Below, in pieces: positions 375 through 57,690 of a stretch of 64,000 nt of DNA. Below the pieces are notes generated by a model that was given only the letters and a program-made list of their open reading frames with translations, had not been told where the DNA came from and made no database searches. Within the stretch, counting starts at the first letter, position 1, and every line of letters begins with the position of its first letter. Both the position numbers and the translations under genes were made by a program. The DNA is taken from IMG/VR virus record IMGVR_UViG_2630968645_000001. One strand, given 5' to 3'. This DNA is from a virus.

Positions 375-375
375 T

Positions 376-5108: not shown

Positions 5109-5114
5109 TAATCT

Positions 5115-6277: not shown

Positions 6278-6534
6278 ATGCTAAAATATCGAAAGAAACC
6301 AGTCGTGATTGAAGCGGTACAGTATTTAGGTAACAAAATTATCAAGATATATGTAAGTTTGTCGGTAAAGAGTTGACAATGGAGTACATGGATACGGAGC
6401 AAATCTTAACCATTGAAACACTTGAAGGCGAATTGAAAGCAAATAAAGGTGATTACATCATCAAGGGTGTGCAAGGTGAGTTTTACCCATGCAAGCCGGA
6501 CATTTTTGAGAAAACATATGAGCCTGCCGAATAG
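6278..6534 (+). pseudogene. Small phage protein (KKPVVIEA...GDYIIKGVQGEFYPCKPDIFEKTYE family), frameshifted
   Basis: Adding one A in the aacaaaattat run joins MLKYRKKPVVIEAVQYLGNK to NYQDICKFVGKEL...KTYEPAE*. Confidence 0.8.
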
Positions 6535-6624
6535 GTGGAGATGATCCAACATCTCGGATCAACGCTGTTATGTGTGAAATTAAGTCGCCAATAGGCGTCT
6601 TTTTTAATTCCAATACGAGGAGCG

Positions 6625-25767: not shown

Positions 25768-27516
25768 TGCGATGTTACAGACTCCTTGTAGCCCAAGGGT
25801 TTGAAAAAAGGATAAAAAAATTTTCCCCCTAAAAAGAGGGGGAAACAAGCAAAAATGATAAAAAAATAAGGAGTGGACAAAAATTCCACCCCACTGAAAC
25901 AAAAACAGGTGAACCCGTTTCCCCAGTAGGTTAAAATAGTTTTAGGACTAACATCTTAACACTGGGAGTTAACACTGGGAGGTTCACCTGTATGGCTATT
26001 ATACCACAAATGAGTCTGTTTACATGGAAAGAAATTGAGATTCTTGGAGATTTAGACCGTCTTCGCCTTGTACTGGACTACATGCCTGATGAAGCGTTCA
26101 TGCAAAGCCTTGAAAAGAAAAGGGGGAAGGGCCGTAATGACTACCCCGTTCGTGCCATGTGGAATTCTATCTTGGCAGGCATTGTATTTCAACATGAAAG
26201 CATTGAGAAATTACGCCGTGAACTCTCCCGTAATGGCCAATTAAGGGAGATGTGTGGCTTTGAAGGGCAGGTTCCAACTTCATATGCCTATACGCGCTTT
26301 CTAAAATCCCTAATCCGTGACGAAGAAATGATGGATAAAATGTTTGAGACTTTGGTAGAACAGCTCCTGGAACGGTTGCCGGATTTTGGTAAACGCTTGG
26401 CAATCGACAGCAAGGCGATCTCATCGTTTTCTAAACATCCGAACAAGCATGAAACCGAGGATGGCCGCCGGGATCTGGATGCAAATCATAGCCAGAAGGT
26501 TTACAGTGGTGTGACAAAAGAAGGCAACCCATGGCAAAAAGTTGTGAAATGGTTTGGCTACAAACTGCATCTGGTGGTGGATGCAACCTACGAGTTACCG
26601 GTAACATTCAAGGTTACAAAAGCGTCTGAGTCAGACATTACGGAAGGGCATAAACTCTTAGAGCAAATGGAAGAAAAGCAGCCAAAGCTTCTGAAAACAG
26701 CGGAAACGATGGCGGGAGACCGGGGTTATGATGACACGAAGCTGATTACGAAACTCTGGGATACGTATAAGATTAAGCCCATCATTGATATTCGCAATAT
26801 GTGGAAAGACCCCGACAAAACACGATTACTCCCGGGAAAGGAAAACGTCGTTTATAACTACAAAGGAACCGTATCCTGCGTATGCCCTGAAACAGGTAAA
26901 CAACGGGAAATGTGCAACGGGGGATTTGAGAAAGACCGCCAGAAACTAAAAAAACTTTGCCCGGCGAAACAAATGGGAGTGACATGTGAAGGCAAGGCTC
27001 AATGCCCCGTGGCACAAGGGCTCCGTATCTCATTATCTGAAGACAGGCGTATTTTTACACCCATTGATCGATCGAGCTATAAGTGGAAAAAAGAATACAA
27101 CAGACGTACAGCTGTAGAGCGCGTGAACAGCCGGCTTGATACTTCTTTCGGCTTTGAACTTCATACAATTCGGGGAATGGCTAAAATGAAGCTGCGTTGT
27201 GGACTGGCACTCTGTGTCATGTTAGCCATGGCCTTAGGCCGGATCAAAGAGAACCAGGCTGAAAAAATGAGAAGCCTCGTTTCTTAACTTATCCACATAA
27301 AGGAAATCAATTTCAAAAAAAGCGCTTGTGGATCATTGGATTCGTGCGCCTTTTTTTAGATACATTTCTATATTTTTTCAACAATTATCTGATAACAGTA
27401 CATTTTTTAAGCGTGCAAAATTGACTTTATAGTGAAAATGGGCATATATTTATCTGACAATATTATATTTCTGGTGGTGTTCTATTTGCATTGAAAGAAA
27501 AATTGTTAACATCGCA
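25768..27516 (+). mobile_element. IS (IS5/IS1182-like DDE transposase); exact ends uncertain by 1-3 nt
   Basis: Terminal IRs TGCGATGTTA / TAACATCGCA flank transposase 25992-27287. Confidence 0.85.
25992..27287 (+). CDS. DDE transposase
   Basis: GRNDYPVRAMW, AIDSK, WFGYKLHLVVD, GDRGYD, RTAVERVNSRL motifs. Confidence 0.93.
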   Translation: MAIIPQMSLFTWKEIEILGDLDRLRLVLDYMPDEAFMQSLEKKRGKGRNDYPVRAMWNSILAGIVFQHESIEKLRRELSRNGQLREMCGFEGQVPTSYAYTRFLKSLIRDEEMMDKMFETLVEQLLERLPDFGKRLAIDSKAISSFSKHPNKHETEDGRRDLDANHSQKVYSGVTKEGNPWQKVVKWFGYKLHLVVDATYELPVTFKVTKASESDITEGHKLLEQMEEKQPKLLKTAETMAGDRGYDDTKLITKLWDTYKIKPIIDIRNMWKDPDKTRLLPGKENVVYNYKGTVSCVCPETGKQREMCNGGFEKDRQKLKKLCPAKQMGVTCEGKAQCPVAQGLRISLSEDRRIFTPIDRSSYKWKKEYNRRTAVERVNSRLDTSFGFELHTIRGMAKMKLRCGLALCVMLAMALGRIKENQAEKMRSLVS

Positions 27517-28299: not shown

Positions 28300-29259
28300 A
28301 TGGGTCAAATTGTAGACTTATCGCATCACAAACCCGCGAATAAAATCAACTGGGAACGATTTGGCAAAGATGTTGATCTGGCCATTATCCGGGTGCAATA
28401 TGGGTCGCTCAAGGAGGACACGGAATATAAAAATCATGTGGCCAACTGCAAAAAGCAGGGCGTGCCCTTTGGCCATTATGCCTATGGGTGCTTTGTATCC
28501 GTAAATGATGCAAAAACCGAGGCAAGGGACTTTTTAAAAAGGGCGGATCCTGCCGCAAAGTTTTTGGTGCTGGACGTGGAAGGCGACACGGTAGAAGCAT
28601 GCGGCACTGAAAACCTCGCGAAAGCGTCCCAGGCATTTATTGACACTTGCAAAGCGGCTGGCCACAAGGTGGGCATTTACATTTCCCACGAGCTTTATAA
28701 AAAGTATGGGCTAAATAAAGTAAAGGCGGATTTTTTATGGCTGCCGCGATACGGTGCAGATAACGGCAAGCCGGACAAGAAGCCAGATTATCCATGCGAT
28801 TTGTGGCAGTACAGCCAAAATTGCAGGGTAGCATGGTACCCGGGCACCGTGGATCTTAATCTGTTAAACGGCAGCAAAAAACTATCCTACTTTACCGGAG
28901 GCGTTGAAAAGGCGGCCGTACAAGTGACGAAATCGGTTAAAAAAGTAGACAACAACAGGACTACCGTTTACACCGTTAAGCCCGGCGATACGCTGTCCGG
29001 TATCGCGCAAAAGTACGGCACCACAGTGGCCAAGCTGCAAAGTCTAAACAGCATCAGCGACCCCAACAAAATTTATGCGGGCCAAAAGCTGAAAATTGCC
29101 GGGAGTGCCTCCACAGCGCAATACTACACGGTTAAGGCTGGGGACAATCTATCCAAAATTGCAAAGCGGTTTGGCACGTCTGTCAGTCACCTGGTGGCGC
29201 TAAATAAGATTAAAAATCCTAACCTGATCCGTGTTGGCCAAAAGTTGCGGGTAAAATAA
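28300..29259 (+). CDS. Endolysin: GH25 lysozyme plus two LysM domains
   Basis: IVDLSHH, LVLDVE, DLWQYS, VDLN; two YTVKxGDxLSxIA LysM repeats. Confidence 0.95.
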
Positions 29260-29316
29260 GCCGGATCCAGCCATAATAATGATCCACCAGGATAAATCAA
29301 AAAAGCCCTCGCAAAT

Positions 29317-31024
29317 CAGCTCTGAGGAGTAAAAATTTTTCGTGATAATTTAACTATTCCCCCCCCAAAAATGCGGCTAAATATGTAATAATTTAAATAA
29401 TTAGAGCTTGCTGGACGAATATTTTGGCATGGCTTAGTGACAAGTCGAATACAAGCTAAAATTTGATTCGTTCAGCAAGCCCTAATTAAACTTGGCTGTT
29501 TTGAGGGGGTTTTTATTTTGGTTACTAGAAAAGAAAAAAGAAATCGTGAAAAAGAAGCAAATTATTTTTTCGAGTTCCTTAAAATTCAGAAGCATTTTTT
29601 CAAAGACCTGATGAATAACCTAAAAAAGGTAGCAGACCACCGACATCAAAGCTATATCACTTATGGTCCAGAGGTCCTTTTATTTACGATGATGTTGAAA
29701 AATATGACCGGCCTAAAATCCATGAGAAACATGAGTGAGAGTTTTAATAAAGAAGAATGTATTAAAAATGTAGGGAAGGTGTTAGGCTTAGATTCTCTTG
29801 AAGAACTTCCACATTATGATACAATTAACGACTTTTTATCTGGCTTAGATGTAAATGAATTAGAAAAAATTAGAACGTATATGATTAAAGAATTATTGAA
29901 AAAAAGGTCTCTCGAGTCTTATCGAATTGAAGGAAAGTACTGGGGTGTCATCATTGATGGAACTGGATTACACACCTTTCATGAGAAACATTGTAAACAC
30001 TGCCTGAGACGGGCATATACAAATAAAGAAACAGGAGAAACGAACGTACTTTATATGCACCATGTACTTGAAGCCAAGCTTGTCGTGGGGGATATGGTCT
30101 TCAGTATTGCCTCCGAATTTATCGAAAATGAATCAGAAAATGTTTCTAAGCAAGATTGTGAATTAAAAGCCTTCGACAGGCTGGCAAAGAAAATAAAAAA
30201 AATATTTAAAAGACTACCGATTTGTATCTTGGGAGATAGTCTCTATGCATGTGAAACGGTATTTAATCTGTGCAGGGCGCACAAATGGAAATATATATGC
30301 AGATTTAAGGAAGGGAGAATTAAAAGTATCTCGACGGAGTTTAAGGCAATAAAAGAGCTGGAACAAAGTAAGGATCAGAATTCATTAGTTTGGGTGAATG
30401 ATATTGCCTACAAAGACAGAACGGTCAATCTGATGGAGGCCACAATGAAAACAGAGGATGGGAAATCGAAAGAGTATGTATTTATAACGGATATTAAAAT
30501 CACGAAAAAGAACGTGGAACGACTCATCGCTGCAGGAAGAAGCCGCTGGAAGATTGAAAATCAAGGATTTAACGAACAAAAAAATAATCGTTACAATATA
30601 GAACATGCCAATAGCCAAAACTACACAGCCATGAAAAATCATTATTTATTAGTTCAAATAACAGATATTATTAGACAGCTGTTTGAAAAAGGTTCGTCAA
30701 TCTTAAAAGCACTCAAAAAAACGGCAAAAGAAAAATCCTCAAATCTGTTGGAATCGTTTCGGACACGCATTTTAACAGACGAGGATTTCACCCATTTAAG
30801 TAAGCCAATACAAGTAAGGTTTACTTAATGGTTATATTATAGCAAAGGATGTGATGTAAAAAAAGGTTTTTTTGAAGTTATCCACAATTTTAAAAAAGAA
30901 ATTTGCAAATTCGGCTCTTTTTGACTTTGAAAGCAGAAAAAATAGATGGAAAAATTTTCTAAATGTGGATAAGTCATTTTATCATAAAACATCTAAAAAT
31001 TGATGAATTTACTCTTCAGAACTG
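29317..31024 (+). mobile_element. IS copy 2 with intact transposase, inserted in the lysis-cassette terminator
   Basis: Same IRs as copy 1; 9-bp TSD CTCGCAAAT (29308-29316, 31025-31033). Confidence 0.95.
29518..30828 (+). CDS. DDE transposase (436 aa)
   Basis: IIDGTG, LGDSLYA, GRSRWKIENQGF motifs. Confidence 0.92.
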   Translation: MVTRKEKRNREKEANYFFEFLKIQKHFFKDLMNNLKKVADHRHQSYITYGPEVLLFTMMLKNMTGLKSMRNMSESFNKEECIKNVGKVLGLDSLEELPHYDTINDFLSGLDVNELEKIRTYMIKELLKKRSLESYRIEGKYWGVIIDGTGLHTFHEKHCKHCLRRAYTNKETGETNVLYMHHVLEAKLVVGDMVFSIASEFIENESENVSKQDCELKAFDRLAKKIKKIFKRLPICILGDSLYACETVFNLCRAHKWKYICRFKEGRIKSISTEFKAIKELEQSKDQNSLVWVNDIAYKDRTVNLMEATMKTEDGKSKEYVFITDIKITKKNVERLIAAGRSRWKIENQGFNEQKNNRYNIEHANSQNYTAMKNHYLLVQITDIIRQLFEKGSSILKALKKTAKEKSSNLLESFRTRILTDEDFTHLSKPIQVRFT

Positions 31025-31041
31025 CTCGCAAATGTGGGGGC

Positions 31042-31070
31042 TTGAAATTTAAAAAATAACGTGATAATAT
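31042..31070 (+). promoter_or_regulatory. SigA promoter with extended -10
   Basis: TTGAAA-17bp-TAATAT preceded by TGn. Confidence 0.65.
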
Positions 31071-31076
31071 CTTTTT

Positions 31077-31183
31077 AAAGGTATCGCGTCCTTTTAAAAA
31101 AAAATGCGTGGATTGAAACTGTGAATTGGATATTTGAGCTAAGCAAAAACTGCCGGGGCTTATTCCTCGGCAGTTTTGCTTTA
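31077..31183 (+). ncRNA. Solitary type I-C-like CRISPR repeat RNA (Racr candidate)
   Basis: ATCGCGTCC...TGCGTGGATTGAAAC resembles I-C repeats (GTCGC...GCGTGGATTGAAAY); bounded by a promoter and the terminator AAGCAAAAACTGCCGGGG-cttatt-CCTCGGCAGTTTTGCTTT. Confidence 0.65.
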
Positions 31184-31252
31184 TAAATAAGGTCGTAAAA
31201 CCCCTACGCCTTTAGGCTAGTGGTAGTTCAATTTTTAGCCAGAATTGCGTGG

Positions 31253-31645
31253 CTAAATATTTGTTTCCCAGGCATCCACAGTTGCTTTCATAGCTTCCAT
31301 GGCATGTTTTTTTGTGGGAAAATGTTCTATGCCGGATTCCCCGTCATCGACATTGTAAGACGGAACTTCATCCGCATACGGATATTCCGGTCCCCAAGCG
31401 AAGAAGTAATTTCCATTTTCGGCCTTCCCGACGGCGTAGGCCTCGCCGTTATTTGGGAAGTTGTCACGCAATTCAACGATTTCTAATACCTCCACTTTCA
31501 ACTCCTCCTCTTTTTCCTCTACATATTTCCTCATCAATTGTCGGATGACTTCACTCTTGTTTTGCATCAGTGCTTCATTTACGCGGTCGAACCGATCAAG
31601 AAGATCCTGATCAATCCTGTATTGCCTCGTACGTTTCACTTTCAT
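31253..31645 (-). CDS. RHH (CopG-like) domain fused to an acidic unknown domain
   Basis: RBS GGGAGGT before ATG at 31645; TRQYRIDQDLLDRFDRVNEALMQNKSEVIRQLMRKYVE. Confidence 0.7.
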   Translation of the reverse strand: MKVKRTRQYRIDQDLLDRFDRVNEALMQNKSEVIRQLMRKYVEEKEEELKVEVLEIVELRDNFPNNGEAYAVGKAENGNYFFAWGPEYPYADEVPSYNVDDGESGIEHFPTKKHAMEAMKATVDAWETNI

Positions 31646-31682
31646 ACCTCCCATAACCAAAAAGATGGACACAACATGCGCA

Positions 31683-31711
31683 TTGACATGATAAAAGTTT
31701 GTGATTATAAT
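31683..31711 (+). promoter_or_regulatory. Perfect consensus SigA promoter
   Basis: TTGACA-17bp-TATAAT. Confidence 0.85.
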
Positions 31712-31716
31712 TAGTC

Positions 31717-31812
31717 CATGAACCATAACACAGGGTGTATTTAAATAGCATCTTTTTAATTAATTAACCTGTGCTATTTTTTGTTGAACCGTAACATGAG
31801 ATGTAGGGGAAG
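31717..31812 (+). CRISPR. Single-spacer type I-B-like mini-array / CRISPR-like RNA
   Basis: CATGAACCATAACACAGGGTGTATTTAAAT + 36-nt spacer + GTTGAACCGTAACATGAGATGTA(ggggaag); matches the clostridial I-B repeat family GTTGAACC.TAACATGAGATGTATTTAAAT. Confidence 0.75.
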
Positions 31813-31842
31813 AGGGAGCGAATATAAATCCGCTCTCTTTTC
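31811..31842 (+). terminator. Intrinsic terminator, probably bidirectional
   Basis: AGAGGGAGCG-aatataaatc-CGCTCTCTTTT. Confidence 0.7.
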
Positions 31843-32351
31843 TATTTTTCTGGTTTCCCGAATTTTTCCGTCAGCGCAGTTTCTGATATAAACGTATAGG
31901 CGCCGTTACTTTTAAAATGGCCCTCCGGATAATCGGCGCCGTCTATCTCTTCCACCGATATGCCCCAAGTTTTTGCGGCGTCCTTTGCTTCCCACACCTT
32001 AATGCCCAGCGGTTTAAAAGTTTTTCGCATTTCCCGGTACATTTCGGAGGCTTCCGCACGATTCTTTCGTCTGTTATTACGTTCTGCTATTATTTCCTTT
32101 ATTTTCTCGGCAGCCGCCAGGAACTCATCTTCCTCTACTTCCCACGTTCCGACCGTTTTATAATCTGTTTGTATTCTTGATTCGCTGTTGTCGAAAGTGG
32201 TTGACGGTAAAACCTCCCCAAGGCTGAATATGTAATCTTCCTTAACGGCATGTTCGACAATCGCAAATGCCTCGGCAGCTTTTGGTGTCCCCTTTACAAG
32301 CTCCGGGTAAACAGTTTCGGAATAAGACGTTTCTTTATACACAATTTTCAT
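31842..32351 (-). CDS. Hypothetical protein (anti-defence candidate)
   Basis: RBS AGGAGG; co-transcribed with 32371-32742. Confidence 0.75.
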   Translation of the reverse strand: MKIVYKETSYSETVYPELVKGTPKAAEAFAIVEHAVKEDYIFSLGEVLPSTTFDNSESRIQTDYKTVGTWEVEEDEFLAAAEKIKEIIAERNNRRKNRAEASEMYREMRKTFKPLGIKVWEAKDAAKTWGISVEEIDGADYPEGHFKSNGAYTFISETALTEKFGKPEK

Positions 32352-32370
32352 TTTTGTTTCCTCCTAATTT

Positions 32371-32742
32371 TTATGCGTTTATTTTAGCGCCTTTAAATCT
32401 CCAAAACGCTTTTGTTACCGGTGTATATGCGCCACGTTCTTGTGCCACAATAACACCGTTTTGCAATTCAAGAAACCCTTGTTCTTTACGGTATCCGGAT
32501 CCTGTATAGTAATTTACGTATAAGCGTTCCTTCCCGTATTTTGCCCAGTAGTTAACGGAATAGGAATCGCTCTTCATTACGGAATTGATGTATGTTTCAA
32601 CATCTTCCACCGTAATTTCTTTTGCTGCTTTTGCCTCCTTCCATGCGAGCCGGAGAGATTCTGCAAAGTATTCCTTTACCTTTCCGCCAAATTTACGTTG
32701 CCCTGCTTTAGCAATCTCCCAAGCCCGTTTCATAACGTTCAT
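32371..32742 (-). CDS. Hypothetical protein with MKRAWEIAK...LRLAWKEAK N-terminal motif (Acr candidate)
   Basis: First gene after a strong promoter; RBS GAAAGGAG. Confidence 0.75.
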   Translation of the reverse strand: MNVMKRAWEIAKAGQRKFGGKVKEYFAESLRLAWKEAKAAKEITVEDVETYINSVMKSDSYSVNYWAKYGKERLYVNYYTGSGYRKEQGFLELQNGVIVAQERGAYTPVTKAFWRFKGAKINA

Positions 32743-32773
32743 TTCTCTTATCTCCTTTCCTTATCTTGATTTC

Positions 32774-32802
32774 ATTGTATCATTTTGTATGTACATTGTC
32801 AA
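32774..32802 (-). promoter_or_regulatory. Near-consensus SigA promoter of the small-ORF operon
   Basis: Minus strand TTGACA-17bp-TACAAT. Confidence 0.8.
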
Positions 32803-32880
32803 TACATTTTTAGATATTTTTTATTGGTTTTTGAAAAAAAGTGATCCCGCCAAAAAACCAAAAAAATTTTTCGGGGGATA

Positions 32881-33008
32881 TAGACAAAATAGTTCAATTT
32901 TCTTATAATTTTGTTAGCAGGCGTTCCCAATTGTCCATGTATTTTGCAAAAAATACCCCCCTATGCCTGCACAAAAATAGAGCAGGTGGTTGGCCTGCTC
33001 CTTTTTTA
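32881..33008 (+). ncRNA. Putative small RNA (promoter plus about 95-nt hairpin transcript)
   Basis: TAGACA-17bp-TATAAT (32881-32909); GCAGGC...GCCTGC stem; terminator GAGCAGG-tggttgg-CCTGCTC followed by a T-run. Confidence 0.5.
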
Positions 33009-33037: not shown

Positions 33038-33268
33038 TTAATCTTCCCACACATCATCCATCATTTTTTCGATTTCTCTCTTCATTTCATCAGTGCGCTT
33101 TTTGTCAATTCGATATTCGCCGTTTTCATAAATCAGCGCATCGCCCTCTTTGGCACTCTTAGGAAGCTTGCTTCTTTCGATGTCCACCAGTTTCAGGCTC
33201 TCATCTTCACAAACTGCAAATTTTTCGCCCTCAAAATGATCAATAATATACCGTTTCATTGCCCTCAC
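33038..33268 (-). CDS. DUF3006-like protein
   Basis: YIIDHFEGEKFAVCE...LPKSAKEGDAL motif; downstream of the ComEC-like gene. Confidence 0.8.
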   Translation of the reverse strand: MRAMKRYIIDHFEGEKFAVCEDESLKLVDIERSKLPKSAKEGDALIYENGEYRIDKKRTDEMKREIEKMMDDVWED

Positions 33269-34401
33269 CTCGGCGTAAAAGACGTTTGTGTTTTGTATGT
33301 TTTGCCTTTGTAACTTGCCAAGACATCCACTTTTACTTTATATCCCTTTGCTGCCCGGCATATTTTAATAGGGAGTTTCGAGCCGACTTTCCCATTGTAT
33401 GTCGTATTTTTTGACTTATAGTGGCAAACTGCTTTATACTTTGTGCCGTTGGGCAGCCCTCGGACCGTTAGATAAATCGTGCTGTATTGTTTTGGCCTAG
33501 TATTGCTCAATGATGCGGACAATTTGTAGGATGCTTTTGCCGTTGAGCTGGTAGTAGGTGTGCTAACAGGCTTTGTATTAAAGCTTAAATTTTTGCCATC
33601 TGTGTTTGCAACGATCGTGCCTTGTTTGTCTGTACGAAAAACCTTTACTTTTGCAGCTTTTAAGCGATTAAGTGTATCTGCAGTAGGGTGGCCGTAGCTG
33701 TTTCCTTTGCCGACACTGATAACAGCATAGGCAGGTTTAACAGCTCGTAAAAAAGCGGTACTCGTGGATGTTTTAGCACCGTGATGACCAACTTTCAGCA
33801 CATCGGACCGTATATATTGTCTCGATTTAATCATGTCTGACTCGGCCTTAAATTCGGCGTCACCGGTAAACAGAAATGCTTTCTTATTATATTGAAGCCG
33901 TAAAACAGCGCTGTTGTCGTTTAGATCGCTATATTTTTTAACCGGTCCGGCAAACTTGGCAGAAACACCTTTTACGGATAAGCTCACACCCTTAGCAGCA
34001 GTTTTTGCCTTTAATCCCTCATTTTTAACGGCTCTCAGCAAATTAGCATAAGCTTGGGTGCTGTTGGACACTTTTGGAGCATAAAAAGATTTGACTTTGT
34101 ATGCTTTTAAGACCTCGTCCAATCCGCCGATGTGATCGGCATCTGGATGTGTCGCGATCATCACTTCAATGTCACCGACATGTTGCCGTTTTAAATATGA
34201 TACTACTTTGTTTCCGTCACGGCCGCCATCAATTATGATGTCCTCTCCGTTTGGTGCCTTAATATAAATCGAGTCACCCTGTCCAACGTTTATGTAGTGG
34301 ACATACATTTTCTTTGTTGCCGCGTCCGGGCTTTGTGGCAACGCTACCAAAGACAGCAATAAAGCGAGCGCAACTAAGACTTTAAACCTAAAATTTTTCA
34401 T
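33265..34401 (-). CDS. Secreted ComEC/Rec2-like metallo-beta-lactamase-fold hydrolase
   Basis: Signal peptide; INVGQGDSI, THPDADHIGG, LFTGDAE, LKVGHHGA motifs. Confidence 0.9.
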   Translation of the reverse strand: MKNFRFKVLVALALLLSLVALPQSPDAATKKMYVHYINVGQGDSIYIKAPNGEDIIIDGGRDGNKVVSYLKRQHVGDIEVMIATHPDADHIGGLDEVLKAYKVKSFYAPKVSNSTQAYANLLRAVKNEGLKAKTAAKGVSLSVKGVSAKFAGPVKKYSDLNDNSAVLRLQYNKKAFLFTGDAEFKAESDMIKSRQYIRSDVLKVGHHGAKTSTSTAFLRAVKPAYAVISVGKGNSYGHPTADTLNRLKAAKVKVFRTDKQGTIVANTDGKNLSFNTKPVSTPTTSSTAKASYKLSASLSNTRPKQYSTIYLTVRGLPNGTKYKAVCHYKSKNTTYNGKVGSKLPIKICRAAKGYKVKVDVLASYKGKTYKTQTSFTPR

Positions 34402-34551
34402 CTGCACATCTCCCTTCGTGAATATTTTATATGAGAATTTTGGATATGCAATGGGTTTTTGAAAAAAATATGTAAATGCCTGCAAAAAAGAGCAGGCTTT
34501 CACCTGCTCTTTTTTCTACTCAATACAGCTGGCTGGCTGTCATCTTTTGAG

Positions 34552-34843
34552 TTGTTGACGAATTGTTGACGAAATTCATCATTGTTGACCATTTTACTCC
34601 CCATAAAATCAGATAACTAATTTTTAAAATCCACTTATACCAATGGTTTTCGATTCATTTCCATCGAGTTCCTAAATTGCCTAACACCTTCCCAAGGTGT
34701 GGGTCGCGGGTTCGAGTCCCGTCTTCCGCTTAAAGTTTAAACGCTCAAACCTCTTGATATAAAAGGGTTTGAGCGTTTTTTGCTTTTCAATAAATTGTAG
34801 CTCACGGAAGCACAATTTATGACTTGTTGACGGATTGTTGACG
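34552..34843. promoter_or_regulatory. attP region with integrase arm-type direct repeats TTGTTGACG
   Basis: Copies at 34552, 34563, 34582 (TTGTTGACC), 34824 and 34835 flank the tRNA-like core. Confidence 0.7.
34683..34730 (+). other. attP core: 3' part of tRNA-Gly(CCC); not a complete tRNA
   Basis: ACACC-TTCCCAA-GGTGT anticodon arm, GGTTCGAGTCC T-arm, acceptor CTTCCGCT; D-arm and 5' acceptor strand absent; adjacent to the integrase 3' end. Confidence 0.85.
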
Positions 34844-36049
34844 GTTTGATTCTTTTTGGCTTTTTGACCGGAAAATAGTATCCAATTTTTCAGCTGCCGA
34901 CTTATCCGCAGTTCGGAGCGCGTGGCCGTAAGTATCCATCGTAATACCGATATCAGCATGCCCAAGTCTTTCTGATATAATTTTAGCATGCACACCCTGG
35001 TTAATTAGAAGCGTAGCCGAAGTATGTCGCAGATCGTGCAGGCGGATATGCCTTACTCCAGCTTTTTTAACAAATCGGGACCACCATTTGCTTGGTGTCG
35101 TCGGATAAAGATGATGACCGTATTCGTTACAAAACAGCCATTGGTGTTCTTGCTCATATGCATCGCCCATTTTTTCCTTTTCTTTTTCAAGATACTTTAC
35201 ATAAAACTTTAGCTCATCCATAACGGTTTTAGGCAACGAGACAAGGCGTGCCGACTTTTTAGTTTTAGTTGACTTGATTTCGGGTTTATTATTTTCTCCC
35301 ATTACAATGGTCTGGTCAATCTCAATTGTCTGCTCGTCAAAGTTTATTTTCGAGACTTCAAGCCCTAATAATTCGCCTTTCCGCAGCCCGCCGGCCAATG
35401 CGAGGGAAGTAAAGATACGCCAATGGATCGGCTCAGATTGTACAGCTAAAAAAAGTTGTTCCACTTCTTCCTCGTCATACACATTAACTTTGTGCATTTC
35501 CTCATCCTTATTTCGTGGCTTTTTCACACCGTCTACCGGATTGTTTTTTACCAGCTTCCATTCGTAAGCACGGCTCATGATGTTCCTTATCACCCGGTAT
35601 GTATATTGTTTGACGTGGATTGAACTTTCCCCATTTCCATCGGTGCGCTTTAGATTATTCAAAAGGTTTACGATGTGTATTGTTTTGATTTGGTCTAGCC
35701 TAAGGTCACCAAGCACCGGTTCTATATGGTTTTTAAAGTTGCTCAGATAATTATTTAAAGTGCCACCTGACAGGGCTTCTTTTGCATATTTTTTCTCCCA
35801 TTCCTTTACAAACTCAGATAGTACCATTTTTTCAGGCGCAATATATTCCCCGGCTTCCACTTCAATTTTAAATTTTGTCAGTTCATCATTTAAATACTCA
35901 TTGAGTTTTTTCTTTTTCTTTAATAACTGCGGATCATTAACATGGATTGTTTTTGTTCTTTTTAGGCGTTTTCCCTTCGCACTATATCCAATCTCAACAA
36001 CAAGTAGAAAAGAGTTTGCACCACGTTTTTGTATACTTGCCATATTCAT
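34817..36049 (-). CDS. int: Tyrosine integrase
   Basis: GLRKGELLGL, HDLRHTSAT, RLGHADIGITMDTYGH motifs. Confidence 0.95.
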   Translation of the reverse strand: MNMASIQKRGANSFLLVVEIGYSAKGKRLKRTKTIHVNDPQLLKKKKKLNEYLNDELTKFKIEVEAGEYIAPEKMVLSEFVKEWEKKYAKEALSGGTLNNYLSNFKNHIEPVLGDLRLDQIKTIHIVNLLNNLKRTDGNGESSIHVKQYTYRVIRNIMSRAYEWKLVKNNPVDGVKKPRNKDEEMHKVNVYDEEEVEQLFLAVQSEPIHWRIFTSLALAGGLRKGELLGLEVSKINFDEQTIEIDQTIVMGENNKPEIKSTKTKKSARLVSLPKTVMDELKFYVKYLEKEKEKMGDAYEQEHQWLFCNEYGHHLYPTTPSKWWSRFVKKAGVRHIRLHDLRHTSATLLINQGVHAKIISERLGHADIGITMDTYGHALRTADKSAAEKLDTIFRSKSQKESNRQQSVNKS

Positions 36050-41963: not shown

Positions 41964-42146
41964 ATGAAGAAAAAACTGACTAACTATTCAAGCGTTGATC
42001 ATCATTGGAAAAAGCTGCTAGGTTGCAAGTGCGGATGGTTCATTGAGACCACAGACGTGCTTCTCATTATCAAAGATTACAACCATAGCAGGCTAATTGA
42101 TTACAGGCAAGAAATTAAGTCGAAACTAGGCGCAATGATCGCCTAG
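41964..42146 (+). CDS. Hypothetical small protein
   Basis: RBS GAGGTG; its stop codon overlaps the ribozyme. Confidence 0.55.
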   Translation: MKKKLTNYSSVDHHWKKLLGCKCGWFIETTDVLLIIKDYNHSRLIDYRQEIKSKLGAMIA

Positions 42147-42185
42147 TCCGCCGGAGATAGCCTCCCGGCGCTGATGAGACAGGCT
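42119..42185 (+). ncRNA. Hammerhead ribozyme, type II
   Basis: GTC-GAAA-[CTAGGCG caatgat CGCCTAG]-TC-[CGCCGG...CCGGCG]-CTGATGA-GAC; GUC cleavage triplet 42146-42148. Confidence 0.88.
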
Positions 42186-42297
42186 GCGGAAAGGGGCGAA
42201 TCAATGAAAATTAAAACAGGTGATTGGCTTAAACTGAATCGTTTTGAAAAGCACATATTGTTGTGTTTGGCAATTCAAGCTGGAAGGAGTGAAAAGA

Positions 42298-50113: not shown

Positions 50114-50584
50114 ATGCGGGCTGAACGCTGCTACACATTGAATGAAGAAACGGAGATACGGGTTGGAAATTGTTTTTTTACCCGTGATGATTTGATTTTG
50201 ATGTATATCGACAGCGGCATGGACGTTTTAAGTTTGGCAAAATCATTGCATATCGGACGGCCAAGGATGGAACGAATACTGGACAAGTTTAACATTCCGA
50301 GAAACTGGCATGCGGAGTTGACACCACGGCATTTACGGGTATTGCGCTTTATTAAATATTTTCAGACGCGCAACAAACGGAGTCCTACAAATTTGGAAAT
50401 TTCAAAAGCATTGAGACTATCGCCCGGTTGCACGAACTATCATCTCAAAAAATTAAAAGCACACGGATATGTAGACTGGAAAAGGTACAGCAGCGGTACA
50501 TTCAAATTAACCAAAAAAGGGGAAGGTTGGTGCCGGAATGCCCACACATTTAATCTATTCTGCTTGGAAGAAGACGAAGGATGA
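50114..50584 (+). CDS. Dual-HTH regulator with LexA-type DNA-binding C-terminal domain
   Basis: LTPRHLRVLRFIKYF...SPTNLEISKALRLSPGCTNYHLKKL; overlaps the csf1 start. Confidence 0.7.
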   Translation: MRAERCYTLNEETEIRVGNCFFTRDDLILMYIDSGMDVLSLAKSLHIGRPRMERILDKFNIPRNWHAELTPRHLRVLRFIKYFQTRNKRSPTNLEISKALRLSPGCTNYHLKKLKAHGYVDWKRYSSGTFKLTKKGEGWCRNAHTFNLFCLEEDEG

Positions 50585-51293
50585 AAACGGTGTGATCTGG
50601 CAGAACACGAAAGACGGAAAAGGAAATGAGATCATACGGAATATTAAGTTTGTAGACCCGATGCAGCATAAGGACATGGAGGAACATACCGGGGCCTGCT
50701 TCCTCTGTGGAAAGCAAATGACACACGGGATGAAGCTGAAAAAGGTATTCTCAAACGTATTCACGGACTGGAACCAGGCAAAAAACCCGTCCGGTACCCA
50801 CGTCTGCCCGGCCTGCTGCTTTTCAATTTTGACCACAAAGGAACGGTACGGATTGAGAACATTCTCCAATGTGGCGAATGAAGAACACCTGTGGCTGCCG
50901 AACCGGGTGGAAATGCGAGAATTCTTGCTGCGGCCACCTGATCCTCCTTTTGTGGTCAACCTGGCCGTTTCGCAGAAAAAGCACATTGCCTTTAAAGGGG
51001 AGGTTAATTATTCACGCGACATATTTACGGTCATGTACGAGGAAATGCCGGTGCTGATTGTATTAAAAAAATTTAAAAAGCTACTAACAATAGTTGAACA
51101 TTTTTTATATGGCTTTACCAAAACTGAAATCACAACAGGAGAATATAGTCAAAAGCGGATCCTTGATTTTGGGATCGATGCATGGGAAGCCTTTGAAGAA
51201 CAGGTAAAACCATACCGGGGTACGCCATTTTTAGACGTCGTTATGTTTGTGGCACAAAGAATAGAAAACGAGGAGCATTCCTGTAATGAAGGA
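50538..51293 (+). CDS. csf1: Type IV CRISPR large subunit Csf1 (Cas8-like); last few codons displaced by IS110
   Basis: CFLCG and CPACC Zn ligands, FSNVFTDWN, PPDPPFVVNLAVSQKKH, GFTKTEITTGEY; native end ...NEGGKLR* at 53089. Confidence 0.85.
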
Positions 51294-53074
51294 AATTTGA
51301 GGTTTGCACAAAAAAGAGCCCCCCTGGTATGATACGAGGTGTCCAGAGCTTCAAAAGCAAGAATGGACCCTTAATTGATATCCAGGGAGGACTCACCATG
51401 AATTATACCCAGAATCACAAGATTTCGCAAATCACGACATCAACGCTCATTATCGGCATTGATGTAGCGAAGGACAAACATGTCGCACGAGCGCAGGATG
51501 ACAGAGGCATTGAGTTTGGCAAACGTCTGATCTTTGAAAATCGATTTCATGGCTTTCAAACCCTGTTGGATTGGATGGAAAGACTAAGAAAACAGAACCA
51601 TAAAGACCATGTGATTTTCGGGTTGAACCAACAGGGCATTTTTGGCTGAGCCTTGCCTATTTTCTTAAGGCTAAGGGTTATGATTTTGTTTTGGTCAACC
51701 CGATGCACGTCAAGAAAAGCAAAGAGCTGGATGACAATTCGCCAACGAAAAATGATACGAAAGATGCCAAAGTGATTGCACAGCTGATTAAGGACGGGCG
51801 ATACTCCGTACCCAATCTCCTGGACGGCATTTATGCCGAACTGAGAGAAGGCGCCAAATTAAGAGATCAGCTCGTTAAACAGCTTATGATCACAGATGGC
51901 CGTATTCAAAACGTTATTCAGCGCTACTTTCCGGAGTTTTTTGACGTATTTAAAGACTGGGAAGGCAAAGCGGCCCTTTGTACCTTAAAAAGTTTTCCAT
52001 TTCCTTCACAAATCAAGGAAATGACTCCTGAAGAAGTGCTTGAGAAATGGAAGACACAGGTTAAAAGAGGTGTCGGCATCAAAAAGGCAACAAAGCTTGT
52101 GGAAGCAGCCAGAAAGAGTATTGGCATTCAAGTTGGCATGAAGTTTGCCAAACGGGAAATAGACTGCCTGCTTGAGCAGTATGAGCTTTACAATCAACAA
52201 ATCCAACAGTTGGATCAAGAACTGGAAAGCCTGGTAGAAGATCTACCGGGAGCCAGGCAAATGATGGCTATCCCAGGCCTGGGAAAGACCACAGTCGCTT
52301 TATTTTTCGCTGAGGTGGGTGACATTACAAAGTATAGCCACCCCCAACAGCTTGTAAATTTAGCAGGGCTCTCATTGAAAGAACATAGTTCAGGGAAGTT
52401 TAAAGGGCAAACAACCATCACCAAACGGGGAAGAAAGAGGCTTCGAAGAGCCTTGTATCTGGCAATTCGCCCGCTGGTTGTGCACAATCCGGCGTTTAAA
52501 GCCCTGCACCAATATTATACAAAGCGCCCTAAACACCCGTTGAAGAAACAGCAGTCACTCATAGCCTTGTGTTGTAAGTTATTGCGTGTCCTATTTGCCA
52601 TTGGCAACAAGCAATGCGATTTTGATGGGGCAAAATTATTGCAAGGATTGCCTCAAATAGAAACATTACAGGTAGCTTAAAAAAGCAAGGTAGCTCTTAA
52701 ATACAGCTTTATTCCGAATAAAACACCAATAGTGCAGAGCCGGAGTTTATTTATTCCATTCGGGCATTATGACCCAGTCGAGGAGCATATCCGGCCTCCA
52801 CCTCATGGATACGCAGGACGAAGGAATGTGTGGACCCCGATCCTGGGAGACATAGGAGGGTGAGCGACCGTGAGTTGTGTGGAGATTTTATGCACGGTTA
52901 TACCTTTTCGTTTACCAAATATATCCAATTTGGTTGTTAGGATGGACCTTACCCTGCAAGAAAATTCTGCTTATATCTATTTAGAGGTGTGACAACGATT
53001 AGGTGTAAATCAAATACCTATGAAATTTGGAGAATATGCGAGTAAATGAGAGATAATTGAACTTTATTGAAGGA
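51294..53074 (+). mobile_element. IS110-family element; transposase frameshifted
   Basis: Shared core TGAAGGA at 51287 and 53068; IGIDVAKD, NPMHVK...KNDTKDA, SSGKFKG...ITKRGRKRLR motifs; one base missing near 51620. Confidence 0.9.
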
Positions 53075-53085
53075 GGAAAACTAAG

Positions 53086-54039
53086 ATGAATCATTACCGT
53101 TTAGAAACCATTTATACATTTGTTGCAACCGTTAAGCCATATCGGGGAAAGTGAATCAACTCAAAGTTTTCTGAACACGGCTACAGTCGTCAACGATGGA
53201 AAGCCGGAGGAAGTATTTGTTTATACGGGAAATGCTTTGAGAGGCATGCTGCGGGACTGTGGGGCGCGTTACTTACTAAACCGGTTAGATATTCGTGTCC
53301 CGTTAAAAGCCTTCCATTTTGCTTTTCAGCGGCGGCTCAATTTGGTGGGGCCCAGGCACTGGATATTGACCAGGCTAAGATCATCCGCAAGGCCCTTCCA
53401 TTTGTCTCCCTATTTGGCGGAGGCGTCGGAAATCAGATTTTGGATGGAAAGCTAAAGCAAACATTTGTTTATCCTGTCTGCAGGGAAACGAACAATATCA
53501 TCCCAAGTTATGTTGAAAAGTCCGACTATAGTTGGAGACATTTTACAAATGTGATTGAGTTTACCCGGAAAGATGACGAGAAGAATGTGAATCTTGCGGA
53601 GCAGTTTTTAATTGGACAAGGAGAACAGCAATTACTCGAGGGAGAAAACCACCAAAAAAGAAGAAAGAAAAGATGGCCCAGCTACACAAATGCGGTACGG
53701 CGTCGAATATTTAGCGGCCGGTACGAAACTATGGCACCGTTGGGATATTATCTGCGATGAATTAGAGCTTGGGGCATTTGTATCAGCCCTGCACGAATGG
53801 CAGAAGCAGCCTTACCTTGGGGGCATGAGCGGCAAGGGTTTTGGATTGGTTGGCAGCCGATATGGAATTGGTAACGGAAGACGGACGCGAAACAATTTGC
53901 ACAGATTGGACAGGAATTTATCAAGCTAGGAACGACCGCAGAACAGGCAAAGGCTGCATATGATGCTCATCTGCAGGAAATGTATGATGCTTATTTAATT
54001 GACAACAAAGAAGAATTCACCAAGCTGCTGGCAGGTTGA
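53086..54039 (+). pseudogene. csf2: Type IV Cas7 (Csf2), six +1 frameshifts as sequenced
   Basis: PLSHIG, GNALRGMLRD, LFSGG, SLFGGGVGNQILDGKL, TRKDD, YLGGMSGKGFG; removing 6 duplicated bases gives 315 aa. Confidence 0.88.
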
Positions 54040-54045
54040 GGTGAA

Positions 54046-54731
54046 ATGAAGAATTTGAAGATCACGGCCCGTCTTTTGGACGGGCGCGTGAACTCCAATG
54101 ATGGCATTTTTAATCTCGACAGCATATTGGCCTATGCGTGGATGTTGGAAAACCATCCGGACGATCTGCTCAATAACAATTTAAAGCCAGATAACCTAAT
54201 AGAACCAGATCTTCCTCTAGCTAAAGATGAGGACGGAAGGTGGAAAGTATCTCTAGGATTTTATAAGCAATATGCTGAAACCGTTGAGTACTGGGCATAA
54301 GAAAGTAAACGATTTTGACCGCGGCTTATTACGTTGATTTTGGTGGAAAGCGCGGCAAAATAAACGGTGCGTCCGGTGAGTTTAAAGCTTACCGCATGCC
54401 ACAAATGATCAGAATCGTAAGTGATATTGAATTTTACGCGGTTGGTGATCCAAACGGGATCCGGCACTTGCTTGCTCATATAACGAATATTGGCAAGAAA
54501 GCATCTCAAGGCTATGGATATATACGAGAATGGGCCATAGAAGAAAGCGAAGACGATTATACAGATATCGGTCCGTATGGAATCATGCGGGCACGCCCGT
54601 TTAAAGGTGAACTTCCGGACGATGGTCAAGCATATCAAATTAAGAAAATACGAATGAAACCGCCCTATCACCTACATACGGGCCAGGTGCCGTGTATTAT
54701 CCCAAATGTAAGGAGAGATCAGCTTGCTTAA
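54046..54731 (+). pseudogene. csf3: Type IV Cas5 (Csf3), two +1 frameshifts as sequenced
   Basis: LDSILAYA, LPLA, GEFKAYRMP, FYAVGD, IGKKASQGYGYIREWAIE; corrected length 227 aa. Confidence 0.85.
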
Positions 54732-55440
54732 AATAAAACTACCTATCCAATTTGATGATGGAAAAGCCATGTATGATGCAGTATTGGCGATCATTCATAA
54801 ACATTCTCCTGTGCTGTCTAAAATGGTTCACGATAACCACGAATACAATCCGTTTAGTATTGAATTGCCTGACATTGTCAATGTGATAGGTTTGGAGATT
54901 GAACCATTTTTTAAAAACCTGAATGGTATCGAAATTTTGCGTGATGTTTCATATAAAGATTTGTTAAATAAGAAATATGACAATGTGACAATTCTCGTAC
55001 AGTTTAACAATACGACGTTTTCCCGAAAAGGATATGATACACCGATCCCAGATCCAAATCATATTTTACAGAGTTTGAAAGACAGGTGGAACCAGCTTTT
55101 TCCAGATAAAATCGATATTAAAATCCCTTTTCACGGTGAAAATACCAGGGAATATACGGTGATTAAATTTTTGAACATACATTCAGCAACGCAAAAAATA
55201 GCCGACTACAGGCCATACACTGTTTTTTATGGAAAAGTTGGATTTAAATTTTACGGAGATGAGGCATACGTTCAAAAAGCAAATATTCTTTTTCGGTTTG
55301 CTGAATTTGCGGGTGTTGGGCTTAAACGGCAAATGGGAATGGGAGTTACAAAAATATTGGCAAAAGGGGACGCGAAAACAAATGATGACAGAAGCAGAGA
55401 AAGAAACGTACATGCTGCGTGCGACGCTGCCGGGATTTAA
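54724..55440 (+). CDS. cas6: Cas6 crRNA-processing endoribonuclease
   Basis: NPFSI, PDPNHILQSLKDRWN, GKVGF, FRFAEFAGVGLKRQMGMG G-rich loop. Confidence 0.9.
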   Translation: MLKIKLPIQFDDGKAMYDAVLAIIHKHSPVLSKMVHDNHEYNPFSIELPDIVNVIGLEIEPFFKNLNGIEILRDVSYKDLLNKKYDNVTILVQFNNTTFSRKGYDTPIPDPNHILQSLKDRWNQLFPDKIDIKIPFHGENTREYTVIKFLNIHSATQKIADYRPYTVFYGKVGFKFYGDEAYVQKANILFRFAEFAGVGLKRQMGMGVTKILAKGDAKTNDDRSRERNVHAACDAAGI

Positions 55441-56158
55441 AAGAAAAGTATCAAGAAGTTTAGAAATTATTCGCGAAGCACTGGCAATAGAAGGCATTAA
55501 GTGGTCTGCATCCGTTAGCTTTGGGAAGGATAGTCTCGTGATGCTGGATTTATTAAGCCAGGTGATGGATGAGATCCCCGTATACTTCATGGATAGCGAC
55601 TATAAACTCCCAGAAATATATGAGACTATTGAATTATCACAGGAGCGATATAAAATAAATATTAGTAGAGCATATTTTGCTGACCGTCGCCCAATACAAG
55701 AGGTTTGGGAAAAGTTCGGAATTCCGGGTATCAATCGAACAACGAACATGCAAAATAAGGCACTCAAAGTTTTAAAGAAGGATGTCTCTGATAAATGGGC
55801 AAAAGAACATGGCTATAACGGAATCTTTTGGGGTATCCGCAAACAAGAATCAGCTCAAAGGAAATGGATGGTCACATCTTTTGGTGTGACATTTGAGAAC
55901 AAGCAGGGATTTTACCGATGTGCGCCCATTGCCTACTGGGATGCAAAAGACGTATGGGCTTATATCGTATCTCGAAATTTGGATTATCCTAAATTATATG
56001 ATTATCAAAAATACCAAACACGCGACTGGATCCGTAACACTGGTTGGGCGACGACAGACGGTGCTGAACGTGGACGTATTATCTGGTTGCGGGAATTCTA
56101 TCCAAACTATTACGATGAGTTGCGGTGGATGCTACCGAAAATAGATGCATATGTTTAA
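55382..56158 (+). CDS. CysH/PAPS-reductase-like protein (type IV-B accessory)
   Basis: SVSFGKDSLVML, FWGIRKQESAQR, PIAYWDAKDVWAYI, YPKLYD; ATG 55382 overlaps the cas6 end. Confidence 0.88.
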   Translation: MMTEAEKETYMLRATLPGFKRKVSRSLEIIREALAIEGIKWSASVSFGKDSLVMLDLLSQVMDEIPVYFMDSDYKLPEIYETIELSQERYKINISRAYFADRRPIQEVWEKFGIPGINRTTNMQNKALKVLKKDVSDKWAKEHGYNGIFWGIRKQESAQRKWMVTSFGVTFENKQGFYRCAPIAYWDAKDVWAYIVSRNLDYPKLYDYQKYQTRDWIRNTGWATTDGAERGRIIWLREFYPNYYDELRWMLPKIDAYV

Positions 56159-56243: not shown

Positions 56244-57690
56244 TGATGCTAGTATAGTTTCATGGACACCCTTTAGTGAAATATAATATTAACGAAGGGA
56301 TGTGTCCTGATATGGGTAACACAAGCGAAAAACGTAAAAGTTATCATGCTGAATTTAAAGAAATGGTGGTTGAGCTTTATCAAACTGGAACACCAGTAAA
56401 ACAGATCTGCAGCGAATATGGCCTGTCTGAAACGACAATCTACAAATGGATCAGAAAACAAAAACCGGTTAAGCTGGATGACGGGAGCTCTTTTACCCCG
56501 GAAGAATTTCTGAACCTGCAAAAAGAATTGCACCGGCTGAAAGAGGAAAACGAAATCTTAAAAAAAGCTATGGCCATATTCGCAAAGAAGTAGATCAAAC
56601 CACTGTTATATCCATGATTGACGAGATAAGAGCCAAACACCATTATGACCTTAAAACCATGTGTACGGTCCTTGGCGTGCCGAGAAGTACCTACTATCAA
56701 TCCAAACAAAAAAAAGAGTCAAAAACAAAACGGGAAAACCGGGAGTTGACAGACAGAATACGAAAAATCCATACGGAAAGCAAGCAGAGGTACGGAGCGC
56801 CGAAGATCCGCCATATGCTTGAAAAAGAAGGGCTCAAAGTCAGCCTGAAACGGGTTCAGCGTTTGATGAAGGCTGCAGGCATTTATTCCATTATCAGAAA
56901 AAAGTACCGTCCCCATTCCAATAAGGGCAAGATGGAAGAACACGATAACCTGCTGAACCAGGACTTCTCAACGACAACCATCAACGAGAAATGGGTTACG
57001 GATATTACGTACATTCATACTTTGAGAGACGGTTGGTGCTACCTGGCTTCCGTAATGGATTTACATTCCAGAAAGATTGTCGGTTACGCTTTTGACCGCC
57101 ACATGACGACTGAACTGGCTTTAAAGGCAGTAGAAAACGCTTATCAGGCACAACGTCCAGGTCCGGGATTGATCTTGCATTCTGATTTGGGATCCCAGTA
57201 TACAAGCGAGAAATTTGCAGAATACATGGAAAAGAAGCAGTTCAAACACTCCTTCAGTAAAAAAGGTTGCCCATACGATAACGCCTGCATTGAGTCTTTC
57301 CATGCAATTCTGAAAAAGGAAGAGATCTACAGAGTCAACTATTTGAACTTTCAAGCTGCCAAAAGAGCCTTATTCGAATTTATAGAAGGCTGGTACAATC
57401 GGAAACGGATTCATAGCTGCTTGGGCTATATGACGCCACAAGAGACAGAAGACAGTATCAAAGGGGCAGCGTAGTGCTCTTCACAATTTTACAAGCATCC
57501 GCTTTACATGGAGTGGCGGGTGTGGCAGGCTTGTTTGCCATGCGAAAGAAATCATTGCCCCTTTCGCCCTTCGCATAACACCACGCCCGCAGAGGCTCCA
57601 TGTCAAGCGACCAGCGATGTCATGAAAAATATGGCATGAGATCAAAATTAAATTTCACTTATTGGTGTCCAAAATATTGACTTAAATCCA
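56244..57690 (+). mobile_element. IS3-family element (orfA 56311-56593, orfB 56614-57474)
   Basis: TG...CA ends with imperfect IRs ending in TGGACACC; 3-bp TSD TAT; WVTDITY, HSDLGSQY, DNACIESF rve motifs. Confidence 0.93.

Follow-up and report, generated by a model that had tools for sequence, protein, structure and literature searches.

Two phage-borne CRISPR RNA-like units that probably copy host cas regulators of types I-C and I-B in a Heyndrickxia prophage island

Introduction

CRISPR-cas loci can encode their own regulators, and the autoregulatory mini-arrays of host CRISPR-cas loci are known as CreR (Liu et al., bioRxiv 10.1101/2023.03.10.532045). For the viral RNAs called Cracr, the mechanism was demonstrated for types V-A, I-E and I-F, and candidates for types I-C and I-B were predicted in Bacillota (Liu et al., bioRxiv 10.1101/2024.10.29.618823, version of July 2026). 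In that preprint, guides that share an array are said to target variants of a single type in every case. Phage copies have also been predicted for type I-B, in Clostridium phages, and for type I-F, in the part of the paper drawn on here (Shmakov et al. 2023, bioRxiv 10.1101/2023.03.03.530964 / PMC10120712), and for the RNA anti-CRISPRs termed Racr the repeat is the sole defining feature (Camara-Wilpert et al., Nature 2023, PMC10651486). Here we describe a phage island at positions 31,042 to 33,008 of a 64,000-nucleotide (nt) stretch of viral DNA (IMG/VR record IMGVR_UViG_2630968645_000001, called the window hereafter), which holds three plus-strand RNA units. Two of them, Unit 1 and Unit 2, are very likely phage copies of the CRISPR RNA (crRNA)-like RNAs of CreR type by which the host regulates its cas genes, that is, viral anti-CRISPR RNAs of the Cracr type. 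The mechanism is one that has already been described, and the window is a well-documented further example of it.

Results

Three conserved units between lysin and integrase

The initial annotation, made from the sequence alone, had proposed that the island combines three plus-strand units that lack an open reading frame (ORF) but have a near-consensus promoter and a terminator each, with three interleaved minus-strand ORFs, two of them behind a strong promoter. All of these elements were recovered where they had been placed (Table 1). The three units alternate with the three ORFs, those of 123 and 169 amino acids (aa) lie behind the minus-strand promoter, no credible ORF was present in the ORF list within Units 1, 2 or 3, and the terminator hairpins of all units were folded by RNA folding. 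The number of promoter-like sites by itself is not above chance, since 9 were found and 11 were expected in shuffled sequences. The units are considered real because they are conserved from promoter to terminator, not because of the promoter count.

This conservation emerged from the comparison of the interval in related prophages, which the annotation had put forward as a check. The same units are present in five related phage islands of IMG/VR beside the window's own, and each is kept from the -35 box to the terminator while the flanks diverge. The guide RNAs of Units 1 and 2 are constant across the five islands, whereas the protein cargo is variable. In the nearest relative compared, G001 (a complete 45-kb IMG/VR genome), the island is found at 99% identity. 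When Rfam was scanned by E-value, CRISPR repeat models matched Unit 1 once (I-C type) and Unit 2 twice (I-B type); these scores fall under the gathering thresholds, and the assignments were confirmed by direct comparison with host repeats.

Unit 1 carries a type I-C guide probably aimed at cas3

The pseudo-repeat of Unit 1 retains the hairpin base and the 3′ handle (...TGCGTGGATTGAAAC), and its loop is swapped for a U/A-rich stretch. The handle ATTGAAAC agrees with host I-C repeats, the repeat of the host I-C array ending in GCGTGGATTGAAAT with T as the last base. In addition, TGCGTGGATTGAAA is common to the pseudo-repeat and to a solitary host repeat upstream of cas3. This host element of H. 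faecalis, located some 280 nt upstream of cas3-cas5c-cas8c-cas7, consists of a solitary I-C repeat, a near-identical guide of 16-17 nt and a terminator. The host 17-mer recurs on the opposite strand, where it follows a TTC protospacer-adjacent motif (PAM) and lies between the -10 box and the ribosome-binding site (RBS) of cas3, and when the 17-mer was searched for in degenerate form among 42 genomes of the family, only these two sites at the cas3 locus of the H. faecalis genome G002 were found. Four further cas3 upstream regions repeat the circuit, giving five host loci in total, and in these loci guide and target co-vary at positions 2, 9 and 13. Within the first 16 nt, the only disagreements between host guide and target are at positions 6 and 12; in type I complexes (Cascade), the bases at these positions flip outward and do not pair.

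The Unit 1 guide is constant in all six phage copies except for position 6, and the sequences diverge afterwards until the terminator, the stem of which is preserved in relatives by G-U and compensatory changes, with divergence again just past the stem. The guide matches the cas3 target at 16 of 16 positions in two strains of the H. coagulans group (L178 and L179), and the only difference from the target of G002 is at the non-pairing position 12. All paired positions from 1 to 16 are shared with the host guides, and the agreement covers at least the 9 PAM-proximal nt by which Cracr guides are recognized. From the identity of the guides, the target with its TTC PAM and the guide-target co-variation in the hosts, Unit 1 is, as judged by sequence, a phage copy of the host cas-regulating RNA, aimed at the cas3 promoter.

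A gene pair of the phage encoding MBL-fold and DUF3006 proteins (33038-34404) has a 51%-identical counterpart in L161 (7687-9245), where it lies directly upstream of the host I-C regulator RNA and cas3; in L177, a DUF3006 gene is also found upstream of cas3. The phage may have picked up the host I-C regulator by way of this neighborhood.

Unit 2 is a type I-B mini-array probably aimed at cas6

The transcript of Unit 2 should begin at the first of its two pseudo-repeats. The 5′ end of this pseudo-repeat is degenerate, the hairpin is preserved via compensatory changes, and the ATTTAAAT handle is intact and agrees with host I-B repeats. Its GAACCATAAC signature is common to the regulatory pseudo-repeat of the host, but not to the array repeat. 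The second pseudo-repeat is degenerate at the 3′ end (...GTAGGGGAAG) and resembles there the second host pseudo-repeat (...GTATGGAAG). The host elements in question are regulatory mini-arrays divergent from cas6, found in eight I-B loci of H. coagulans including strains H-1 and 2-6, and their pseudo-repeats share the peculiarities of those in Unit 2.

Six viral contigs share one and the same Unit 2 spacer, position 3 being the exception. With T at this position, the guide equals the host guide at 19 of positions 1-22, the differences being all at the non-pairing positions 6, 12 and 18, and the shared stretch comprises at least 9 PAM-proximal nt; the copy in the window has one extra difference, at position 3. 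The target has a TCA PAM, is located 94 nt before the cas6 start codon and abuts the predicted -35 box. Pairing reaches approximately position 21 in six of the eight I-B loci, in strains with six T residues in the target. In the other two (L175, around 2160-2190, and L182), one T is lost from the T-run and pairing is shortened to 11 nt for the host and the phage guide alike, and this loss may represent an escape allele from phage-imposed repression. Lederbergia and a relative have the same host I-B circuit with a different guide. No match of the Unit 2 guide was found in the genomes of H. faecalis G002 and Lederbergia G026, and an exact scan of the genome-contig collection for Unit 2 gave no match. 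Taken together with the host mini-arrays, the pseudo-repeats and guide of Unit 2 appear plainly derived from the host I-B regulator.

Expression in a lysogen

Transcription was assessed using one stranded raw RNA-seq run of a lysogen (X22), with 4002 reads on the island. The strand convention was calibrated by the minus-strand operon, where the depth drops from 246 to 2 across the predicted promoter (32802-32774). Plus-strand depth was 48-120 at Unit 1 and 143-458 at Unit 2, and read-through was observed beyond both terminators, that of Unit 2 being partial and extending to about 32153. The island is transcribed in this lysogen, where silence would have refuted the initial annotation.

Approximately 60 reads contained a 34-nt match to 32903-32936 with the I-C repeat on both flanks. 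These reads represent a transcribed host I-C spacer that is identical to the prophage, where a TTC PAM adjoins it. Because such array reads make up much of the apparent Unit 3 signal, the evidence for the expression of Unit 3 is weak. The match between spacer and prophage fits a tolerated self-target, as an active anti-CRISPR predicts.

The host and its CRISPR systems

The host belongs to the species group of Heyndrickxia (Bacillus) coagulans and H. faecalis, as indicated by the identity of an insertion sequence (IS), the I-C spacers against the phage and published strain tables. The transposase of the IS at 29317-31024 is 100% identical to seven copies in H. faecalis Marseille-P8953. The same genome, G002, has a type I-C array of 112 repeats, and at least 4 of the spacers match the phage of the window over the full length; many more match the relative G001. 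According to a published strain comparison for W. (H.) coagulans, I-C arrays that have this repeat and I-B arrays of the Unit 2 repeat family occur, the strain tables list I-B, I-C or both depending on the strain (both in H-1), and type IV operons are located inside prophages.

Unit 3

The fold of Unit 3 has a z-score of -4.5 and exposes a C-rich segment. The closing stem and the C-rich motif are preserved in all relatives and in two H. faecalis loci, which are small-RNA-like units at L176 720-930 and L166 1500-1680. One of these directly follows the I-C array and neighbors an XRE-type gene, and the other precedes a tRNA gene. Unit 3 showed no resemblance to CRISPR repeats and no Rfam family on its own strand, and a likeness to the second I-B repeat of H. 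coagulans was rejected, the handle being absent. The C-rich loop has no complementary site in the phage genome, and the duplex energies of Unit 3 with neighboring start regions, including that of the DUF4352 gene of a relative, were no better than those of shuffled sequences. Two host strains hold I-C spacers against this region, each beside a TTC PAM, and Unit 3 contains both protospacers: that of spacer 69 of G002 at 32927-32953 and that of the X22 spacer, which is preceded by TTC at 32900-32902.

Proteins of the island

The ribbon-helix-helix (RHH) protein is present in all relatives at 64-100% identity and is a candidate regulator of the island. The 169-aa protein belongs to only 2 representative clusters among 1.8 billion proteins; its ORF occurs only together with Unit 2, and both are missing in G047c. 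This protein is a candidate anti-defence protein. Paralogues of the 123-aa protein were seen in the variable cargo of relatives. None of the three ORFs showed similarity to a known anti-CRISPR or a solved structure in Pfam, PHROGs, PADLOC and PDB sequences, resources of which none is Acr-specific, and the atlas gave only weak HTH_59 leads with scores below 0.8.

Genome setting

The sequence of the window is periodic, with 1-6684 recurring at 57317-64000 (period 57,316 bases), and represents a wrapped circular phage genome. Late genes are encoded on the plus strand up to the GH25-LysM lysin, and the minus-strand tyrosine integrase lies beyond; the interval between them holds Units 1-3, outside any CRISPR-cas locus. 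The IS within this interval has inserted into the lysin terminator loop and lies 17 nt upstream of the -35 box of Unit 1. This element is missing from G001, and its inverted ends and target duplication can be read in the window; it is not part of the ancestral island. A further IS element is located at 25992-27287, and a type II hammerhead ribozyme match in the early region (42118-42188) scores 39.4 bits, above the Rfam gathering score.

Table 1. Positions of the island features and of other features of the window
Feature	Coordinates	Strand	Description
GH25-LysM lysin	28300-29259	+	ORF and domain scan
IS element	29317-31024	+	DDE transposase 29518-30828; 9-bp target duplication 29308-29316 / 31025-31033
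Unit 1	31042-31186	+	Promoter, I-C pseudo-repeat, guide, terminator
Unit 1 promoter	31042-31070	+	TTGAAA-17-TAATAT, extended -10 TG; conserved in 6 phage islands
Unit 1 pseudo-repeat, type I-C	31081-31119	+	Rfam CRISPR-DR9, 22 bits (below gathering threshold)
Unit 1 guide	31120-31135	+	16 nt, TGTGAATTGGATATTT; complementary to cas3 -10/RBS region, TTC PAM adjoining
Unit 1 terminator hairpin and U-run	31144-31186	+	From folding; stands in place of a second repeat
RHH protein, 130 aa	31253-31645	-	Pfam RHH_1, E 7e-5; PHROG CopG-like repressors; acidic C-terminal domain
Unit 2	31683-31850	+	Promoter, one-spacer I-B mini-array, terminator
Unit 2 promoter	31683-31711	+	TTGACA-17-TATAAT, 12/12; kept in relatives even with a different upstream flank
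Unit 2 pseudo-repeat 1, type I-B	31717-31746	+	Rfam CRISPR-DR3, 33 bits (below gathering threshold)
Unit 2 guide	31747-31782	+	36 nt; positions 1-22 as in the host I-B regulatory guide except 6, 12, 18 (for position 3 see text)
Unit 2 pseudo-repeat 2	31783-31812	+	First 23 nt intact; Rfam CRISPR-DR3, 28 bits at 31783-31805 (below gathering threshold)
Unit 2 terminator	31806-31850	+	From folding; bidirectional, also ends the 169-aa ORF
169-aa orphan	31842-32351	-	No Pfam, PHROG, PADLOC or PDB match
Gp111-like protein, 123 aa	32371-32742	-	Pfam PF07410 Phage_Gp111 N-terminal domain, E 2e-18
Promoter of 123-aa/169-aa operon	32774-32802	-	TTGACA-17-TACAAT with TG
Unit 3	32881-33008	+	Promoter, structured RNA of ~90 nt, terminator
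Unit 3 promoter	32881-32909	+	TAGACA-17-TATAAT, 11/12
Tyrosine integrase	34817-36049	-	ORF and domain scan
Type IV cluster, wHTH-csf1-(157 aa)-csf2-csf3-cas6-cysH	50114-56158		IS110 at ~51276-53063 truncates csf1; cas6 and cysH intact

Discussion

Proposed mechanism and its weak points

The initial annotation had regarded two of the RNAs as mimics of I-C and I-B repeats. The assignment to both repeat families holds, but the RNAs are not mere mimics, as they carry guides to the cas3 and cas6 promoters. The data show the anatomy of the units, the identity of their guides with host regulators, the position and PAM of the targets, the co-variation, the conservation among phages and the transcription; we infer that the RNAs are processed, loaded into Cascade and repress cas genes, as well as any part played by neighboring proteins or Unit 3. 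Each unit would be transcribed from its strong, constitutive-type promoter, and the host Cas5c (I-C) or Cas6 (I-B) would cut the pseudo-repeat, leaving a normal 5′ handle. The processed phage RNA would then be loaded by the host Cascade, and its short guide would pair with the PAM-flanked site in the cas3 or cas6 promoter region, along roughly 16 nt in the I-C case and roughly 21 nt in the I-B case. Such partial pairing is expected to be too short to license Cas3, so that Cascade would stay in place as a repressor and cas expression would drop; the phage RNA may also compete with real crRNAs for Cas proteins. In this way, the prophage and superinfecting relatives could escape two CRISPR types that are found singly or together in host strains. 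This mechanism is well supported by the comparative evidence.

Several observations weigh against this interpretation. Position 3 of the Unit 2 guide is C in the window and in G001, which is a seed mismatch to each of the eight sampled host targets, and the Unit 2 copy of the window may be weakened or may be tuned to a target variant outside the sample. An I-B array of the Unit 2 repeat family is missing from H. faecalis G002, which is the best host match, and the I-B handle pattern gave only scattered matches in its genome. Concerning expression, most of the plus-strand signal in X22 is read-through, standard RNA-seq under-represents RNAs of about 100 nt, and the X22 self-target is a reading of RNA, so that the prophage DNA of that strain may not have kept the protospacer. 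Finally, the Cas6 and type IV genes of the phage family could use Unit 2.

Alternative explanations

The units might act as pure repeat decoys of the Racr type, in which the RNAs only tie up Cas5c, Cas6 or Cas7 in aberrant complexes, with no role for the guide. A lone repeat that has a promoter and a terminator to itself and lies where anti-CRISPRs are usually placed would suit such a decoy, and competition for Cas proteins also belongs to the known mechanism of viral crRNA-like RNAs. Nevertheless, the 16-22 nt past the repeats are conserved in diverged phages and match host regulators and targets at the pairing positions, and the confinement of guide differences to positions 6, 12 and 18 would be needless for a decoy, which makes this explanation quite unlikely. 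We rate slightly lower still the reading of Unit 2 as the guide of an array-less, Cas6-containing type IV system of the phage family itself (csf1-csf2-csf3-cas6-cysH). The phage encodes Cas6 and CysH, relatives have intact csf1-3 (the whole cluster is intact in relative G047, L172 2419-7127), Unit 2 is the sole repeat-spacer-repeat in the genome, and silencing of the same cas6 promoter would in principle be within reach of a type IV complex. On the other hand, the complete relatives G001 and G046 keep Unit 2 without Cas6, csf1 of the window is cut by IS110 and csf3 is frameshifted, csf2 is absent in 19 other viral records with the Unit 2 repeat family, and the phage Cas6 has no similarity to the host I-B Cas6, while the pseudo-repeats and guide point plainly to the host I-B regulator as their source.

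It is highly improbable that the units are inert hitch-hikers, that is, pieces of host cas loci acquired by recombination and no longer functional, although the seed mismatch in Unit 2 of the window would suit this explanation and the MBL-DUF3006-like pair adjoining the host I-C regulator suggests a capture route. The strong promoters and terminators are retained and the units are transcribed; moreover, in phages that are 80-90% identical elsewhere, the conserved stretch coincides exactly with the span from promoter to terminator, and variation is restricted to non-pairing positions. Virus-borne mini-arrays also exist that serve phage-phage conflict, and the units might likewise mediate superinfection exclusion by using host Cas proteins against rival phages. 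The guides are instead constant among relatives, and what they match is host promoters. Apart from the units, GenBank phages contained no protospacer for either of the two guides, and IMG/VR, scanned for the guide of Unit 2 alone, gave no match other than Unit 2 itself. We reject this explanation, the least probable of those considered, because the collections searched contained no phage protospacer for the guides.

A more novel mechanism is also conceivable, though we hold it to be unlikely: Unit 3 might be a new, non-repeat anti-defence small RNA (sRNA) whose C-rich loop blocks a host RBS, or Unit 2 might be loaded by the Cas6/type IV-CysH complex of the phage family. If true, either the block by the Unit 3 sRNA or the type IV loading of Unit 2 would be a mechanism not yet described, and loading by the phage type IV-CysH complex would silence the host I-B promoter without host Cascade.

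Units 1 and 2 as phage copies of the host regulators provide the reading retained here, at the strength given in the Introduction. The initial annotation had further proposed a multi-layer counter-CRISPR cassette against a host with both I-B and I-C systems; the two guide RNAs bear this out in part, while the third RNA is without CRISPR likeness and a protein layer is unproven.

Significance

In this phage-host pair the circuit is visible on both sides, as host regulator and target co-vary and the phage copy differs at non-pairing positions. The units extend the viral crRNA-like anti-CRISPR RNAs to an industrial and probiotic species of Bacillaceae, and to a phage that would disarm two types of CRISPR system out of a single island. 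Engineering H. coagulans is difficult, and the I-B and I-C systems native to it are candidate tools for genome editing, both of which prophages with these units could silence; the units themselves could provide compact, ready-made switches for lowering cas expression. The 169-aa orphan linked to the I-B unit and the conserved Unit 3 are candidates for new anti-defence functions.

Promoter-driven single I-B-type repeats were also seen in unrelated, mostly AT-rich phage contigs (L009, L011, L012, L014, L018, L021 and L024; two of about 200 kb), where the repeat is followed by AT-rich sequence and a terminator. These units probably belong to the same RNA class, aimed at other hosts.

Comparison with known systems

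The closest likeness is to Cracr. As with these RNAs, the units are phage-borne and lie outside a cas locus, a pseudo-repeat is followed by a short guide that reproduces at least 9 PAM-proximal nt of a host CreR/CreA guide, the target is in a cas promoter, and the location is among candidate anti-defence genes. Both units show the features by which a Cracr is operationally defined, namely a mobile element, a pseudo-repeat with an intact handle, a shared guide and a PAM-flanked target in a cas promoter. In contrast to the Cracr preprint, two separate single-guide units aim at two CRISPR types in one island here, Unit 1 has a terminator hairpin instead of a second repeat, and the units are known from sequence and transcription.

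The comparison with Shmakov et al. concerns the part of that paper drawn on above. The I-B case of Clostridium perfringens phages is similar in that a host mini-array lies upstream of cas6, the target is located between them, and the seed is shared by phage and host. The present host is a member of Bacillaceae, however, and its mini-array is divergent from cas6. No phage example of type I-C is named in that part, whereas Unit 1 is of type I-C, and the host loci here keep their own regulator, whereas the paper reports an anti-correlation for type I-F. The host elements upstream of cas3 (I-C) and cas6 (I-B) share the architecture and the guide-target co-variation of CreR; CreR RNAs are self-regulators of the host, whereas the units of the window are phage-borne copies under stronger promoters. 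As with the Racr, Units 1 and 2 are phage-borne look-alikes of repeats driven by promoters of their own, the Racr lying near anti-CRISPR loci. They differ from Racr in having a conserved guide with a target in a host promoter; a guide match to a host regulator, which is what separates Cracr from Racr, is present in both units. What is particular to this island among these systems is the combination of two separately transcribed guides against two CRISPR types, a single-repeat I-C unit that ends in a terminator, and unusually complete sequence evidence from both host and phage.

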